Source of the DNA: Anaerolineae bacterium
GTDB lineage: Bacteria > Chloroflexota > Anaerolineae > Aggregatilineales > J027
Reading direction: 5' to 3'
DNA length: 64,000 bases
NCBI GenBank assembly: GCA_019913005.1
Contig: JAIOHL010000249.1
Coordinates: forward strand, 5,615 to 69,614
Within the stretch, counting starts at the first letter, position 1. Each line of letters starts with the position of its first letter. Made by a program: the position numbers and the translations under genes. Under the pieces are notes generated by a model. It saw only the letters and a list, made by a program, of their open reading frames with translations, ran no database searches and was not told where the DNA came from. This document shows positions 32,683 to 58,985 of this stretch, piece by piece.

Positions 32683-32715
32683 TGGTATAGTTGGAGTAAG
32701 GTGGACTAGTCCACC
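32683..32715. promoter_or_regulatory. candidate GntR/HutC operator: perfect 16-bp palindrome plus an adjacent half-site
   Basis: GGTGGACTAGTCCACC at 32700-32715 is a perfect inverted repeat centred on CTAG. TGGTATAG at 32683-32690 looks like a left half-site. The element is 41 nt upstream of the binding-protein ATG. Confidence 0.5.
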
Positions 32716-32755
32716 CTATACCACTCACACCTAAATTTTTTAGGAGAACCACAGC

Positions 32756-37979: not shown

Positions 37980-39005
37980 ATGACAACTCAGCAACCATTG
38001 ATTGAATTACGGCATGTGCATCGACATTTTAAAAAAGGGCGCACCGACATCCCGGTATTGCAGGACATCAGCTTGGCAGTCCACCCCGGCGAGATTTTGT
38101 GTCTTGTGGGAGAAAGCGGCTGTGGCAAGACGACCACTGGCAAAATTATGGTGGGTTTATTGGCCGAGTCGTCTGGTGAGGTGTTATATGAAGGTCAGCC
38201 GATTCATGGACGCGGACGCAAAGAGAAATCGGAATATCGGCGGTCATTGCAGATCGTTCATCAAGACCCCTTTGCCTCGTTGAATCCTTCGCACACCATC
38301 GGGCAAATTTTGGGCTATCCACTCAAGCGGCATCATCTGGTCAGCAATCGGGCCGAACTGCGCCGTCGGATCTGGGAAATACTGACACTGGTGGATTTAA
38401 CCCCCCCCGGCGATATTGTCAACAAATATCCCCATCAACTCAGTGGGGGGCAGCGCCAACGGGTCAGTATTGCCCGCGCCTTGTCGGTCAATCCGCGATT
38501 GATTGTGGCGGATGAGGCGGTCAGTATGGTGGATGTCAGCATCCGCATCAGCTTGCTCAAAACGCTGCAAAACCTACGCGATAGATTCGGGATTGCGGTG
38601 GTGTTTATCACCCACGACCTCGCCCTTGCCAAATACTTTGCATGGGAGGGCCGGGTGGCGGTGATGTATTTGGGGCGAGTGGTCGAAATTGGCAGCACGC
38701 CGGAAATTATCGGCAGTCCATCCCACCCTTATACTAAAGCCTTGATTTCGGCCATCCCTGAAGCCGACCCGATTGTGACCCGGCGCAAAGAAACCCTGCC
38801 CTTGCGGAGTGATGACATCCCCAGCTTGATCAATATTCCGGCGGGGTGTGCCTTCCATCCACGCTGTCCATTTTTTGTGCCGGGGGTGTGCGATCAGGAA
38901 GTGCCCGCGTTGGAGCCACTCAATGGCTATGGGCAGGAAGTCGCCTGTATACCGTTGACACAAGGAATGGGACTAAGCATCCGTGAATCCACCGCCGCGT
39001 CGTGA
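37980..39005 (+). CDS. ABC transporter ATP-binding protein (DppF/OppF type)
   Basis: GESGCGKTT, LSGGQRQR, LIVADEAVSMVD, CAFHPRCP. Confidence 0.93.
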   Translation: MTTQQPLIELRHVHRHFKKGRTDIPVLQDISLAVHPGEILCLVGESGCGKTTTGKIMVGLLAESSGEVLYEGQPIHGRGRKEKSEYRRSLQIVHQDPFASLNPSHTIGQILGYPLKRHHLVSNRAELRRRIWEILTLVDLTPPGDIVNKYPHQLSGGQRQRVSIARALSVNPRLIVADEAVSMVDVSIRISLLKTLQNLRDRFGIAVVFITHDLALAKYFAWEGRVAVMYLGRVVEIGSTPEIIGSPSHPYTKALISAIPEADPIVTRRKETLPLRSDDIPSLINIPAGCAFHPRCPFFVPGVCDQEVPALEPLNGYGQEVACIPLTQGMGLSIRESTAAS

Positions 39006-39195
39006 ACCCGATGCTATTGAAGTTTTTTTACGTACTTTTTTGGGGTTAGGGGCGTTCATTGCCCTGTGCAGTGTGGTAACGTGGTTAAGCGCCGAGCCGG
39101 ACTCGCCGGAATATACCTTGAGCATCTGCAATATTTTTATTGGGCTGGCGCTGATAGTGGGAGTTGCTGTTTTTGTCAAAGTGTTTCGGCGCTAA
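38983..39195 (+). CDS. possible small two-TM membrane protein (70 aa)
   Basis: GTG start overlaps the end of the ATPase gene. Helices FLGLGAFIALCSVVTWL and NIFIGLALIVGVAVFV. No homology recognised. Confidence 0.35.
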   Translation: MNPPPRREPDAIEVFLRTFLGLGAFIALCSVVTWLSAEPDSPEYTLSICNIFIGLALIVGVAVFVKVFRR

Positions 39196-39946: not shown

Positions 39947-41500
39947 ATGTACCCAACAACTCTTGAAGAAAAAATTGGGCAGATGTTGGTCGTAGGTTTT
40001 CATGGCTATGAAGCCCCCGAATATCTATTGCAATGGCTGACCGAGGGCCGCATTGGTGGGGTCATTCTGTTTGGGCGCAATATTCAAAACCCACAGCAGG
40101 TTGCCAAGCTCACCCAAGCCTTTCATCAAGCGTCGAAATACCCCCTGTTGATTTGTATTGACCAAGAAGGCGGCACAGTGGCCCGTCTGCGCGATGGTTT
40201 CACCGAAAGCCCCGGCGCGATGGCATTGGGCGTGGCGGATTCAGAATCGCTGGCGGAGGATGTTTCCGAAATGCTGGCAACCGAACTGCGGGCACTTGGC
40301 ATCAATTGGAATCTCGCCCCGGTGGTGGACATTACCCATGATATTTCCAATCCGAGTGTAGGCACACGCTCGTTGGGGCGCGATAAGACACGGGTAGCCC
40401 AGTTGGCAGCGGCAGAAGTGCGCGGATTTCAAAAGGCCCATGTCGCGGCGAGCGCCAAACATTTTCCCGGTTTGGGCAATACCCCGGTGGATACTCATTT
40501 GGCGCTGGCGGTCATTGATGGCTCACTCGATTATTTGTGGGAGCATGATCTCGTGCCATTTCGGGCGGTGGTGGACGAGGGCACAGCGACGGTGATGATT
40601 AGCCATGTCAAATTCACCGAACTCGACCCTGCCTATCCGGCAACCCTATCTCCCCGCATAATTCAAGACCTGCTGCGCCGCGAAATTGGTTTTACGGGCG
40701 TGGCCTGTACTGATTGCATGGAGATGAAAGCGATTGCTAACCATTACGGGTCGGGCCAATCGGCAGTGTTGGCGGCATTGGCAGGGGTGGATTTGATTTT
40801 GTTCTCGCACAGTTTCACCGATCAGCACCCCCTCAGTGTTGAGGTCTATTATTCATTATTGGACGCGGCACAGTCCGGGCATCTGCCGATGGCTCGCATT
40901 GATGAAGCTACTTCGCGGGTGACGGCACTCAAAGAGAAATACGCGATTTCTAATGCGCCGCAACTAGATGTAATTCGCAAACCAGAGCATCTGCAATTAG
41001 CCCATCAAGCGGCCCGTGCGGGGGTCGTGCTGGTGAAATCCGAACCGGATATTTTCCCGCTGCGTGAGGGAGCAAAAATTGGGGTGGTCGAATTTGCCTC
41101 GATTATAGATTCGGAAATTATGGAGCAGGGCGGCCTTAGCGGATTTGCCCATCTTTTGCACCAATATGCCCCCCATATACCAAGTGTCAGCCTGCGCCCA
41201 ATGGAGTATCGCCCCGAAGATTTGGCCCGTGCGCGGGAATTAGCCGCGCAGTCGGATGTATTGGTGCTGGCGACGCGAAATGCCCATTTAATTACCGATC
41301 AGTTGAATGTGGCCCGTGATTTATTGACCCTTTCCAAACGGGTAATTTTGATGGCCCTGCGTAATCCGTATGATGTTGAGGTTTTGTCAGAAAGTGGGAC
41401 GATTCTGTGTACCTGCGGTGACAGCAAGCCATCCTTAGCAGCCGGGGTTGAGGCTTTGTTGGGACTTTTTGTGCCGATCACAATGGATCGGACAGCATGA
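39947..41500 (+). CDS. nagZ: beta-N-acetylhexosaminidase, GH3
   Basis: IGQMLVVGF, DQEGGTVARL, KHFPGLGNTPVDTH. Confidence 0.9.
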   Translation: MYPTTLEEKIGQMLVVGFHGYEAPEYLLQWLTEGRIGGVILFGRNIQNPQQVAKLTQAFHQASKYPLLICIDQEGGTVARLRDGFTESPGAMALGVADSESLAEDVSEMLATELRALGINWNLAPVVDITHDISNPSVGTRSLGRDKTRVAQLAAAEVRGFQKAHVAASAKHFPGLGNTPVDTHLALAVIDGSLDYLWEHDLVPFRAVVDEGTATVMISHVKFTELDPAYPATLSPRIIQDLLRREIGFTGVACTDCMEMKAIANHYGSGQSAVLAALAGVDLILFSHSFTDQHPLSVEVYYSLLDAAQSGHLPMARIDEATSRVTALKEKYAISNAPQLDVIRKPEHLQLAHQAARAGVVLVKSEPDIFPLREGAKIGVVEFASIIDSEIMEQGGLSGFAHLLHQYAPHIPSVSLRPMEYRPEDLARARELAAQSDVLVLATRNAHLITDQLNVARDLLTLSKRVILMALRNPYDVEVLSESGTILCTCGDSKPSLAAGVEALLGLFVPITMDRTA

Positions 41501-41616
41501 AGATGTGACATTGGGGCATATCTAAGGTCATATGTTAACTGGCGATGAACTCAATTGAATTTATAATGGATACAAATTCCAACGTTAACGCTTTGTATTG
41601 ATGGAGTTATATTGCC

Positions 41617-42939
41617 ATGCCCTCCAACAAAAGCATCCCCAAAACCGCCACCAAGACTATGCCGGCTGTCCCGCCTCCCAACTATCCGGATTTAATTGGA
41701 CTTGTCACCAATAAGAAACCCATCAATATTGATATAGTCCAATGCGCTGTCGCTACTCGTCCGACCCAAGTGATTGCCGGACAAAATTTTGAACTAATTG
41801 TACTGCTGCAAAACCCGTCTGATATGCAGATCAACGTGGTGATCATGCCCAAGCTACCCGAAGAAGACGCCGCCAAACATCCGCATATGTTTGCCACGCC
41901 TTCGCAGCGGATTCGGGTTGTCCTGCAACCTGCTGAGGTCGGTTATGTGATTATTCCAGCAGTGTGTTTACGCAAGGCCGCCCCCGGCCATTACCCGCTG
42001 ATCACCGAAATCCATGCCGAATTGATGGACAAAACCCAAAAACCCGCTCGTGTGCGTTTGCCAGAGGGTGGAGGTGATCCCAATTTGGGCAGTCTAGCGG
42101 AAGAGGTACGTTTAAGCCTGCTGAGTTTACGCAAGCTCCGTTGGGATGCACATGTGGACACGTGGCGCAAACATAACCTCAATTCCAGTTTTGATGTCAT
42201 CACAGCGGCGGAAGTGCCAGCTATTGCGGTCAAAGGAAGCTGGAACAGCCTGTGGACAATGCGCGATTACCTAGATGAAAATGTGCTGCGAGAGCGGGTC
42301 AAGCCCCAAGTGGATGCTTTTTTGGTAAAACTGGTTGCCCCAGAACTTATCAAGAGTATCAACGAAGCCACTTTAGAGTGGTTCAACAAGACTGGTTATG
42401 TGTTGCAGGCGGTTGAGGCGCTTTATGTTTCCAAAGTGCTGACCCATGTGCTGTGCGAACTTAAAGTCGAGCAACCGACCAAAATCAATCCGAACCCGAC
42501 ATTCCCTGATTGGTATAACAAACTGACGTGGGTGTTTTTTGATGACCCACGCCTCGTGGATTACCCAGATCGTGTAATCAAAGGGCATTTATACCCCGAA
42601 CTCATCAAAGACGCGGTACGCCATTCTTTCAGAATGCTCACGACGGTCTTAAAAGAGGATTTTGGGACGGTTGACGAAATTAACGATTACGCCGAAAACA
42701 TCAGTTCTGCGCTGCAAAACAATACGGAATTGACCTACGCGCAGGTCTATTTACCGCTGATTGCTGCCGGGATCATTATCGCCAATCGCTTGACCATGAG
42801 TGGCGAAAATGTCACCAATTCCCTGCATCAGATTTCGGAAGCACAGACCAAACGCAAAGGCGAATTTAATGAAGACAATGCCTTTATTGTTGAAATTATC
42901 AACAAACTCGTAGACCGTTCGCTGGAGTACAAATTCTAA
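41617..42939 (+). CDS. hypothetical protein, 440 aa, no recognisable motif (beta-rich N-terminal ~130 aa, helical remainder)
   Basis: Long clean ORF with an ATG start, preceded by a 116-nt AT-rich gap and followed by a hairpin plus T-run. Hand-counted GC is about 43-47%, versus mid-50s in nagZ and namZ. Confidence 0.75.
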   Translation: MPSNKSIPKTATKTMPAVPPPNYPDLIGLVTNKKPINIDIVQCAVATRPTQVIAGQNFELIVLLQNPSDMQINVVIMPKLPEEDAAKHPHMFATPSQRIRVVLQPAEVGYVIIPAVCLRKAAPGHYPLITEIHAELMDKTQKPARVRLPEGGGDPNLGSLAEEVRLSLLSLRKLRWDAHVDTWRKHNLNSSFDVITAAEVPAIAVKGSWNSLWTMRDYLDENVLRERVKPQVDAFLVKLVAPELIKSINEATLEWFNKTGYVLQAVEALYVSKVLTHVLCELKVEQPTKINPNPTFPDWYNKLTWVFFDDPRLVDYPDRVIKGHLYPELIKDAVRHSFRMLTTVLKEDFGTVDEINDYAENISSALQNNTELTYAQVYLPLIAAGIIIANRLTMSGENVTNSLHQISEAQTKRKGEFNEDNAFIVEIINKLVDRSLEYKF

Positions 42940-42948
42940 GCATTAGCG

Positions 42949-43002
42949 ACACTCTGGTGTTTCTAATGCTCTATCGTTTTGGACAACACCGGAGTGTTTT
43001 TT
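42949..43002 (+). terminator. 13-bp hairpin plus T-run ending at the namZ start codon
   Basis: ACACTCTGGTGTT (42949-42961) pairs with AACACCGGAGTGT (42985-42997) with one G.U pair, then TTTTT (42998-43002). The 3' arm contains the GGAG that would serve as the namZ RBS. Confidence 0.6.
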
Positions 43003-44169
43003 ATGCCTATCTCAACAGGCCTAGAAGTCCTGCGTGCCGATCATTATCGCCCCCTACAGGGCAAACGGGTTGGTTTGATGACCAATCCCAGTGCTACCGA
43101 TGCTCAATTCAACACCACCTATCAAATTTTCACCCATGCCCCTGAGATTCAACTGACCACTCTGTTTGGCCCGGAACATGGCTTTGTCGGTGCGGCGGCA
43201 GATGGGGCAGAGGTCAATTCCAGCCCTGACCCACGCACCGGAATTCCAATCTACAGCCTCTATGGAGAGACTTTCCGACCTACCGCCGAGATGTTGAGAA
43301 ATATAGATATGCTGGTCTGCGATATTCAAGACATCGGCGTGCGCTTCTATACCTATCTCTGGACGATGTCCTATATTTTGGAGGCGGCAGGCGAATATGG
43401 GGTGGAAGTTATGATTTTAGACCGCCCCAATCCTCTTGGGGGGGTAATTGTCGCTGGCCCGCCCCTCGATCCCTCCGTAGCCTCATTTGTGGGGCGATAT
43501 TCCATCCCTGTGCAGCATGGTATGACGTTGGGTGAGATGGCCCAGTTCTTAAATTCGCACTACAACCCCTATCCCGCTCAATTGACGGTGATTCCGTGCG
43601 AGGGATGGCGGCGGGCGATGACATGGCAGGACACCGGACGGTCATGGGTGCCGACTTCCCCCGCGATTGGTCATCTCAGTGCGGTGCAACATTACCCCGG
43701 TGCGTGTTTTTTGGAGGGCACAACACTTTCGGAGGGACGCGGCACAACATTACCCTTTGAGGTGGTTGGCGCACCCTACATAGATGGTATCACGCTTGCC
43801 GAATCGCTGAATGCCCAAAATTGGCCCGGTGTACTCTTTCGACCCCATAGCTTTCAACCGACTACCAGTAAATGGGTGGGGCAGGAATGTCAGGGCGTAC
43901 AGGCCCATATCACGGATTTTTCACTCTGGCGGCCTATCGAAACATGGCTCGGTGTGATTTGCCATATTCGGGCGCTGTATCCTGAACAATTTGGGTGGTC
44001 GCCCATCAATCCCAAAATGGGTCACTGCCATTTTGATTTATTGACGGGTTCCCCCACCATGCGCGACGCAATTGAGGCCGGGGCGACGATTGAGCAATTA
44101 ACGGCGGGGTGGTCGAAATTTTGTGCCGAATTTGAACGCCGTCGTCAGCCATTTTTATTGTACGAATAG
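43003..44169 (+). CDS. namZ: DUF1343 protein, exo-beta-N-acetylmuramidase NamZ (YbbC) family
   Basis: LQGKRVGLMTNPSATD, LFGPEHGF, VCDIQDIGVRFYTYLWT. Confidence 0.8.
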   Translation: MPISTGLEVLRADHYRPLQGKRVGLMTNPSATDAQFNTTYQIFTHAPEIQLTTLFGPEHGFVGAAADGAEVNSSPDPRTGIPIYSLYGETFRPTAEMLRNIDMLVCDIQDIGVRFYTYLWTMSYILEAAGEYGVEVMILDRPNPLGGVIVAGPPLDPSVASFVGRYSIPVQHGMTLGEMAQFLNSHYNPYPAQLTVIPCEGWRRAMTWQDTGRSWVPTSPAIGHLSAVQHYPGACFLEGTTLSEGRGTTLPFEVVGAPYIDGITLAESLNAQNWPGVLFRPHSFQPTTSKWVGQECQGVQAHITDFSLWRPIETWLGVICHIRALYPEQFGWSPINPKMGHCHFDLLTGSPTMRDAIEAGATIEQLTAGWSKFCAEFERRRQPFLLYE

Positions 44170-58913: not shown

Positions 58914-58985
58914 GCCCCATTAGCTCAGTGGATAGAGCGTTGCCCTCCGGAGGCAGAGGCCCGCGTTCGAGTCGCGGATGGGGTA
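58914..58985 (+). tRNA. tRNA-Arg (anticodon CCG), CCA not encoded
   Basis: Hand-folded cloverleaf. Acceptor GCCCCAT/ATGGGGT (G1.U72 wobble). D arm GCTC-AGTGGATA-GAGC. Anticodon arm TTGCC-CTCCGGA-GGCAG. Variable loop AGGC. T arm CCGCG-TTCGAGT-CGCGG. Discriminator A. Confidence 0.9.

Follow-up and report, generated by a model that had tools for sequence, protein, structure and literature searches.

The stretch of DNA analysed in this study, hereafter the window, comprises 64,000 nucleotides of contig JAIOHL010000249.1 of an Anaerolineae bacterium (GCA_019913005.1). The element in question is an ATG-initiated open reading frame (ORF) that lies between nagZ and namZ in a set of genes for the recycling of peptidoglycan and N-acetylmuramic acid (MurNAc). 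Judged from the searches described below, its product belongs to a new protein family, which is undescribed and confined to Chloroflexi of the Aggregatilineales/Phototrophicaceae type, and in which two paralogous types, A and B, can be told apart. The main features of the locus are as follows.

39947-41500 (+): nagZ, encoding a GH3 beta-N-acetylhexosaminidase; upstream neighbour, assigned by Pfam and NCBIfam scans
41501-41616 (+): AT-rich leader between nagZ and the family gene
41617-42939 (+): family gene, type A, 440 amino acids, solo copy
42948-43002 (+): terminator-like hairpin with a run of six T, from folding and a three-genome alignment
43003-44169 (+): namZ, exo-beta-N-acetylmuramidase family; downstream neighbour, assigned by family scans

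The gene for a protein of 440 amino acids that a preliminary description of the window had placed here is present, and so are the neighbours it had named. Upstream of the family gene are an Opp-type ABC importer, a mini-ORF of 70 amino acids, a GntR/UTRA regulator and the GH3 protein NagZ; downstream are NamZ (identified by its NamZ_N/NamZ_C domains), a beta-lactamase-fold AmiE-like protein, AnmK, a BadF-type sugar kinase, MurQ and a GNAT protein. Apart from the mini-ORF, these neighbours are placed by Pfam, and most of them by NCBIfam as well, whereas the family gene is placed by neither. The gap between nagZ and the family gene measures 116 nt and that between the family gene and the namZ ATG, which is conserved in relatives (the longest ORF opens at TTG 42979), measures 63 nt. 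Elsewhere between gntR and murQ, adjacent genes overlap or are separated by 3 or 9 nt, in agreement with the tight spacing noticed earlier. A unit of 1.5 kb, made up of the leader, the family gene and the hairpin, parts nagZ from namZ in the window; in the Bacillus subtilis operon murQ-murR-murP-amiE-nagZ-namZ, nagZ directly adjoins namZ, and there is no counterpart of the family gene (PMC8054146). The two gene sets have NagZ, NamZ, an AmiE-like protein and MurQ in common, and the window adds AnmK, the BadF-type kinase, the GntR/UTRA regulator and the Opp-type ABC importer. Uptake in the window is by this ABC importer instead of the phosphotransferase system of B. subtilis, and the window enzymes appear to be cytoplasmic, judged from the N-terminus of NamZ, whereas those of B. 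subtilis are secreted (PMC8054146).

The position between nagZ and namZ is shared only by the window and two related loci, L088 (ERZ13693045 bin; 86% identity) and L001 (GCA_016234595.1; 78% identity), and the whole 18-kb region is collinear in the three genomes. The ratio of nonsynonymous to synonymous substitution rates (dN/dS) of the family gene in the three genomes is 0.056-0.073, as compared with 0.05-0.10 for gntR, nagZ, namZ, the amiE-like gene and anmK, and its amino acid identity is 78-86%, that of the neighbours being 82-94%. Synonymous sites are near saturation, with a proportion of differing sites (pS) of 0.59-0.70 and a synonymous divergence (dS) above 1. No empty nagZ-namZ site was seen: the gene is present in both available relatives, and the closest other namZ loci recovered are 33-51% identical and have a different gene order.

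The GC content of the family gene is 48.7%, and the lower value reported in the preliminary description is thus borne out against the immediate neighbours (53.4-53.5% in both flanking genes); it does not stand out among the 57 window ORFs of at least 100 amino acids (51.1 ± 2.9%, z = -0.84), and the GC content of third codon positions (GC3), 54.4% as compared with 53.5 ± 4.2% in the same ORFs (z = +0.22), cannot be told apart from theirs. It is the first two codon positions that account for the dip, which thus reflects the amino acid composition; nothing in the base composition points to a foreign origin. The only flanking repeat is a single direct 10-mer, of which we estimate that about 1.4 would be expected by chance. 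No integrase, transposase or other mobility gene lies beside the family gene, and no tRNA gene does, the only one in the window being at 58914. The preliminary description, which had proposed horizontal acquisition as one of two alternatives, regarded conservation at this position in relatives together with a composition matching the neighbours as the observation that would speak against it. The gene is at the same position in L088 and L001, its GC3 matches that of its neighbours, and a recent foreign cassette is thus refuted on those terms; the confinement of the family to one lineage and its co-divergence with the neighbouring genes in both relatives also argue against acquisition. On this comparison, the family gene is functional and native, and has been at the site since before the three lineages split.

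The mini-ORF of 70 amino acids (38983-39195, +) follows the second ABC ATPase gene, whose end it overlaps, and precedes gntR; it encodes two hydrophobic stretches (MNPPPRREPDAIEVFLRTFLGLGAFIALCSVVTWLS...IFIGLALIVGVAVFVKVFRR). Its counterparts, of 70 to 72 amino acids, occupy the same place in L001 (7342-7560) and L088 (7357-7569), and no Pfam match was found for them.

A protein family with two paralog types

The gene had been taken for an orphan, which it is not. A first homolog search returned 51 homolog clusters, and in an exhaustive HMMER search of 1.84 billion representatives of clusters formed at 50% identity, 279 proteins passed E ≤ 1e-3 and 110 passed E ≤ 1e-30. Homologs are about 420-460 amino acids long overall, and most of the best 150 listed of the 279 HMMER matches have lengths of 420-470 amino acids; the nearest member outside the window clade is found at E = 1e-126. 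The GTDB species genomes contain at least 115 matching stretches, a lower bound in that the search pattern missed the window clade itself, and nearly all of them are in metagenome-assembled genomes (MAGs) of Anaerolineae/Aggregatilineales/Phototrophicaceae. The source labels of the matches are Anaerolineae, Aggregatilineales, Aggregatilineaceae, Phototrophicaceae, Ca. Flexifilum and generic Chloroflexi. Three family loci (L059, L073 and L085) come from MAGs labelled Bacteroidetes, Pleurocapsa and Oceanobacillus; they are probably mis-binned contigs rather than transfers, because the distribution is otherwise exclusively Chloroflexi. Two MAGs have two separate family loci each (L032 and L081 in MAG_04; L076 and L086 in MAG_06), and some genomes may hold more than one family array.

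The statement that the protein fits no family holds for all described families that were searched. The window protein gave only noise against Pfam, NCBIfam, PADLOC and PHROGs (E = 0.003 or weaker), as did a Pfam scan of all 51 aligned members (E ≥ 0.003). Single-sequence and profile searches of the PDB sequences returned no match at E up to 10, a combined A and B profile recovered no remote annotated relatives, and no listed homolog record has a name or a Pfam domain.

Subfamily hidden Markov models, applied to every stop-to-stop ORF of 88 loci, about 83 of which are distinct, resolved the two paralog types, with identities of 39% within A, 49% within B and 25% between A and B. Type A always precedes type B on the same strand. 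The architecture is A-B in 48 loci, A-A-B in 18, a split B in 1 and A alone in 15, the last number being restricted to loci that have 1.4 kb or more of sequence on each side and including one duplicate contig. The commonest junction between the tandem genes is a 4-nt overlap, and no description of the paired A-B architecture was found in the sources searched. Eight residues (P24, D25, P49, Q65, R147, E267, W299 and P380) are invariant in both types, and some 25 other positions reach at least 90% conservation. The window protein keeps all of the family invariants and the N-terminal YPD-x-x-G motif, and is assigned to type A with 468 bits on the A profile (profile positions 4-443) and 233 bits on the B profile. 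The proteins of the window clade score lowest on the A profile, at 464-468 bits as compared with 482-659 bits for other full-length type-A genes.

The fixed order on one strand, the frequent 4-nt overlaps and the shared invariants are reminiscent of tandem paralog pairs whose products form hetero-complexes and of mcsA-mcsB-clpC, and most likely A and B form a hetero-complex. The polar and aromatic invariants that both paralogs retain (D25, Q65, R147, E267 and W299) suggest a common site for binding a ligand or a partner, rather than a pair of one active and one degenerate subunit. In the window, L001 and L088 the architecture is a solo A. No type-B partner is present within the 64 kb, where A and B queries match only 41.5-43 kb, and none from the window MAG (K8L91) or from HY862 was listed among the 8000 candidates sharing most words in a B-profile search.

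Long antisense ORFs of up to about 1350 amino acids overlie the family genes in higher-GC loci (L014, 9947-13999, -; 'cluster 3' ORFs in 15 loci). They resemble one another because they are mirror images of homologous genes, and they displace the real family genes in longest-ORF gene calling.

An AlphaFold2 model of the window protein, built from the 51-sequence alignment, has a mean predicted local distance difference test score (pLDDT) of 89.7 and can be divided as follows.

41617-41676 (+): residues 1-20, N-terminal tail specific to the window clade (pLDDT 53-57)
41680-41700 (+): residues 22-28, family signature motif N-Y-P-D-x-x-G, with P24 and D25 invariant in both types
41710-42255 (+): residues ~32-213, Ig-like beta-sandwich with an excursion (AlphaFold2, Foldseek)
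42259-42936 (+): residues 215-440, all-alpha domain of 10 helices, modelled separately

The tail is probably disordered, as judged from the model, and the YPD motif packs on the beta-sandwich. The beta strands are formed by residues 36-136 and 187-213 and the C-terminal half (215-439) is helical, which agrees with the sandwich at about residues 30-160 and the helical remainder predicted in the preliminary description. The matches of the full model in Foldseek searches of the PDB and BFVD are through the beta-sandwich only. The sandwich aligns with MG domains of Escherichia coli alpha-2-macroglobulin and of complement C3/C4/CVF (Foldseek probability 0.9-1.0; E = 2e-5 to 1e-4, identity 8-12%, TM score ~0.2), and equally well with CARDB and PapD/MSP (ASH) domains, and the viral matches in BFVD are of the same kind. 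The likeness is at the level of the fold only, with identities of 8-15% and a TM score of ~0.2 normalised to the query, and the Pfam models for such domains match none of the 51 members. Most such domains are extracytoplasmic, whereas the family protein is presumably soluble and cytoplasmic, its N-terminus being, on inspection of the sequence, unlike a signal peptide or a membrane segment. The helical domain modelled alone is predicted with high confidence (pLDDT 95.4, predicted TM score 0.92), and Foldseek found no significant match for it in the PDB (best E = 0.53, TM score ≤ 0.28), so that in the model it appears as an unrecognised fold. Long alignments to alpha-2-macroglobulin and complement had pointed to an architecture of MG domains plus a thioester domain (TED); this was rejected, in that the search with the isolated helical domain finds no TED/C3d and there is no CxEQ motif.

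The neighbours of the family genes are heterogeneous across loci and only the A-B pairing recurs generally; no neighbour is universal, the Clp ATPase, SDR, Sua5, SBP, TIR_2 and SLATT genes each occurring in subsets of loci. SDR, Sua5 or solute-binding genes are located upstream at some loci, and envelope-related genes (a PMT_2 glycosyltransferase, a LysM/SH3 protein and GT4 genes) adjoin the family at some. In 16 of 70 loci the family array is followed directly, at a distance of 95-300 nt and on the same strand, by a ClpB/ClpC-type AAA+ gene (Clp_N/AAA/AAA_2/ClpB_D2-small); these loci are L006 (12191-17353) and 15 more (e.g., L009, L012, L013, L064 and L076), and in L006, L064 and L076 two Clp-type genes flank an S1-domain gene. 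One branch has a tight same-strand trio of a TIR_2 gene (355-366 amino acids), a solo A and a PMT_2 gene: L003 (8918-13129), L005 (6844-11240), L022 and L023, counted as four since L020 and L003 are the same contig. The gaps in L003 are 15 nt between TIR_2 and A and 3 nt between A and PMT_2, and the TIR_2-A gap in L005 is 56 nt. SLATT_1/DUF4231 genes, which encode a predicted effector with two transmembrane segments, lie directly upstream of A-B arrays in L071 (7904-9331) and L078 (7966-9329) and near the solo A of L007 (12256-12825). PADLOC-DB 2.0 gave no match for A, B, the TIR_2 protein of L003, or the PMT_2 and SLATT neighbours, and only a weak bSEFIR match for the TIR protein of L005.

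The leader and the namZ junction

The elements recognised in the leader, at the namZ junction and at the head of the cluster are listed here.

41534-41539 (unstranded): first GTTAAC, inside the conserved block CATATGTTAACTGGC; exact in two of the three genomes, GTTAGC in L088
41562-41567 (+): perfect TATAAT -10 box, invariant in the three syntenic genomes, in the block TTTATAATGG
41584-41589 (unstranded): second GTTAAC, in the window only; CGCCAT and CACCAT in the relatives
41603-41606 (+): GGAG ribosome-binding site of the family gene, 10 nt 5' of its ATG, inside the invariant block CTTTGTATTGATGGAGTTAT
42991-42994 (+): GGAG ribosome-binding site of namZ, 8 nt 5' of ATG 43003, in the 3' arm of the hairpin
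32700-32715 (unstranded): perfect 16-bp palindrome GGTGGACTAGTCCACC, upstream of the first transporter gene

An alignment of the window, L001 and L088 shows 82% identity in the leader, whereas 59-70% of the synonymous sites differ. Its TATAAT box is likely the promoter of the family gene itself. No good -35 hexamer was found for it in the leader, and the consensus promoter scan, which requires a -35 match, left the box unlisted. Among 81 loci (L003-L087), 33 have the same hexamer within 300 nt before the first family gene, a type-A gene, as compared with about 3.2 expected; it often takes the form CTATAATG (18-19 loci, about 1 expected). The GC content of these 300-nt segments is low, at 49.8% versus 57.9%. 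AAATTTA-type AT tracts are also enriched upstream of the first type-A gene in the 81 loci. The enrichment of TATAAT and the AT-rich leaders indicate that a promoter of its own is a trait of the family, and family arrays seem to carry a strong one. The unrelated, self-contained transcription unit suggested in the preliminary description fits the conserved leader, the TATAAT box and the terminator-like hairpin of the gene. The two GTTAAC hexamers are located 50 nt apart, as had been described. Across the window GTTAAC is found 6 times, where 10.1 would be expected, so that there is no enrichment, and the second copy is absent from both relatives. The pairing is incidental because this copy is specific to the window, and the pair was rejected as an operator, being neither enriched nor conserved.

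The palindrome GGTGGACTAGTCCACC is nested in TGGTATAG...CTATACCA (32683-32732), and the SBP_bac_5 gene at the head of the MurNAc/Opp cluster follows about 40 nt further downstream. The palindrome occurs once in the window, is conserved in the corresponding place in L001 (1087-1100) and L088 (1069-1082), and is missing from the remaining 166 loci. We take it to resemble an operator of the DasR/NagR-type GntR regulators (dre-like), and it is a candidate operator of the GntR/UTRA regulator of the cluster. The palindrome is absent from the leader of the family gene, and no operator shared by this leader and the head of the cluster was found.

The hairpin and T-run reported downstream of the gene are confirmed. 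The hairpin spans 42948-42998 with a core stem of 12 bp (42950-42961/42985-42996), followed by six T at 42997-43002. With a free energy of -27.7 kcal/mol (z = -5.85), it is more stable than any of 200 shuffled sequences. It opens 9 nt past the stop codon of the family gene, and its T-run abuts the namZ ATG, which leaves no room for a namZ promoter between them. The 63-nt intergenic region with its coding flanks is 94% identical in the three genomes, the loop is almost invariant, and one change in the stem, in L001, is tolerated as a G-U pair. As in intrinsic terminators, the stem contains GC pairs, the stem-loop is stable and six U come directly after it. The GGAG of namZ is in the 3' arm of the hairpin, an arrangement also seen in expression platforms that act both by termination and by masking of translation; the window hairpin differs from such platforms in its location in the middle of a catabolic operon and in its almost invariant sequence, the loop included, and an Rfam scan of 41300-43200 gave no match, so that no sensor element was recognised. 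We infer that the hairpin is a leaky terminator or attenuator that also masks the translation of namZ. We do not claim that it is melted by a ribosome terminating on the family gene, since the stem starts 9-11 nt past the stop codon, at the edge of the ribosome footprint.

Two short repeats were observed around this junction. An exact 13-nt repeat, GATCATTATCGCC, is located at 42771-42783 in the family gene and at 43039-43051 near the 5' end of namZ (about 0.02 expected in 1.7 kb, by our estimate), and the 10-mer GTGCCGATCA is common to the 3' end of nagZ (41471) and namZ (43034). Both are probably coincidental.

Role of the solo type-A gene

We consider it probable that the window gene is a solo type-A member of a lineage-restricted A/B family, inherited vertically at this site and expressed from its own promoter, with a binding or scaffold role that is not specific to muropeptides. 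The lone A copy would have come between nagZ and namZ in the common ancestor of the window organism and its two relatives, and would have been inherited vertically thereafter under strong purifying selection. A conserved promoter of its own would drive the gene without involvement of the dre-like operator that precedes the cluster, and the hairpin and U-run would act as a leaky terminator or attenuator which sequesters the namZ ribosome-binding site and thereby sets both transcription and translation into namZ-murQ. Elsewhere, the family forms in most genomes a self-contained same-strand array, A-B or A-A-B, behind an AT-rich leader with a consensus TATAAT. Its most likely task in the cell is one of binding or scaffolding, particular to the lineage and not tied to any one step in the breakdown of muropeptides. 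The data above show the family membership, the architecture of the arrays, the distribution, the composition, the selection, the conserved flanks and the assignment of folds; the steps that we infer are the A:B complex, the binding role, the use of the promoter and the function of the hairpin.

Several points weigh against this account. A hetero-complex could not operate in the window genome unless a B gene is located outside the 64 kb, and the assigned promoter has no recognisable -35 element. A strong terminator in the middle of the operon would leave namZ-murQ without an obvious promoter, which makes the real role of the hairpin uncertain. The assignment as a binding or scaffold protein and not an enzyme is drawn from the absence of a recognisable catalytic fold in the model, and the many invariant D, E, R, Q, W and Y residues would be just as compatible with an enzyme or with a site that binds carbohydrate. 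Retention of the gene near synonymous saturation, together with the almost invariant namZ junction, could mean that the gene is integrated in the pathway in this clade.

The last point leads to clade-specific recruitment, in which the solo A would be a cytoplasmic component of the MurNAc pathway, with a binding, sensing or hydrolytic step, and the hairpin would couple the expression of namZ to it. The position has been kept in three species-level lineages under strong purifying selection, and the 94% identical namZ junction buries the ribosome-binding site of namZ. The lowest A-profile scores are consistent with divergence after the loss of B, the kinds of residue that are invariant (W, Y, D, E, R and Q) would be suited to binding a glycan, and some of the other loci adjoin envelope-related genes (PMT_2, LysM/SH3 and GT4). 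This recruitment nevertheless appears unlikely. The cluster of the window already encodes the known steps of the recycling pathway, and the leader of the family gene lacks the operator-like palindrome of the cluster. Given the collinearity over 18 kb, the retained position may merely reflect an absence of rearrangement. There is also no general link to namZ or MurNAc: of the ~83 distinct family loci, only three (the window, L001 and L088) are part of a MurNAc cluster, and none of 80 other namZ loci from metagenomes, with NamZ proteins 33-51% identical, holds a family member. The link to muropeptide genes is thus clade-specific and not family-wide, and a component of muropeptide processing or sensing, one of the two roles considered in the preliminary description, is not supported at the level of the family. 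The window protein had no Pfam or NCBIfam match that would place it in a family of the pathway (NagZ, NamZ, AmiE, AnmK, MurK/NagK, MurQ or MurR), and the reference operon of B. subtilis needs no such component (PMC8054146).

A bolder form combines both ideas, such that A and B would be a two-subunit cytoplasmic apparatus with a new alpha-helical fold, core to the lineage, whose solo A has been recruited to muropeptide catabolism in this clade for a new step of binding, sensing or catalysis, with the near-invariant hairpin gating the expression of namZ-murQ; we hold this to be decidedly unlikely.

In Firmicutes, the adaptor genes mcsA and mcsB are located upstream of clpC, and the Clp ATPase gene downstream of the family array recalls this arrangement. 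The A/B pair could in that case be an adaptor, a regulator or a dedicated substrate of the adjoining ClpB/ClpC-like ATPase, and the Clp gene is the immediate same-strand downstream neighbour in the 16 of 70 loci mentioned above, beside A-only, A-B and A-A-B architectures alike. This amounts, however, to ~23% of loci and one order, which shared ancestry can explain, and the gaps of 95-300 nt do not indicate tight coupling. The family is without sequence or fold relation to McsA, McsB, MecA and ClpS, and the window copy has neither an adjoining B nor a clp gene nearby, so that we regard the link as very unlikely.

It is highly improbable that the family is a conflict or defence module, i.e., a sensor or effector acting with TIR or SLATT proteins, of which the window copy would be a stray. 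TIR_2 is directly upstream in four distinct loci (L003, L005, L022 and L023) and SLATT_1/DUF4231 in L071 and L078, with a further one nearby in L007, and the neighbourhoods are variable. Such neighbours, however, occur in only ~7 of 84 loci and not at the window locus, PADLOC provides nothing beyond the weak bSEFIR match, and the family appears broad and stable across the lineage rather than patchy. A recently acquired foreign cassette sheltering in the operon, for which the separate leader and hairpin and a GC content 4.7 to 4.8 points below the two flanking genes might be cited, is barely tenable in view of a GC3 like that of the window genes and an overall z of -0.84, the occupation of the same site in relatives at dS above 1 with co-divergence of the neighbours, homologs that all come from the same bacterial lineage, and the lack of flanking repeats, integrase, transposase or an adjacent tRNA gene.

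Uncharacterised lineage-specific families are common. What is new here is an unclassified family, half of whose protein is a confidently predicted fold that has no Foldseek match in the PDB. With 279 representatives and two types, it provides a handle for annotators, and the paired architecture offers a clear experiment. The lineage concerned consists of poorly studied filamentous Chloroflexi, which are abundant in MAGs from wastewater and sediment. To speak of an orphan gene in a catabolic operon is misleading in this case, and it is the family-wide context rather than the local one that informs function. The comparison also exposes two conserved regulatory elements in a Chloroflexi recycling cluster, the dre-like palindrome and the hairpin that would mask the ribosome-binding site of namZ, and thereby makes the regulation of this cluster testable.

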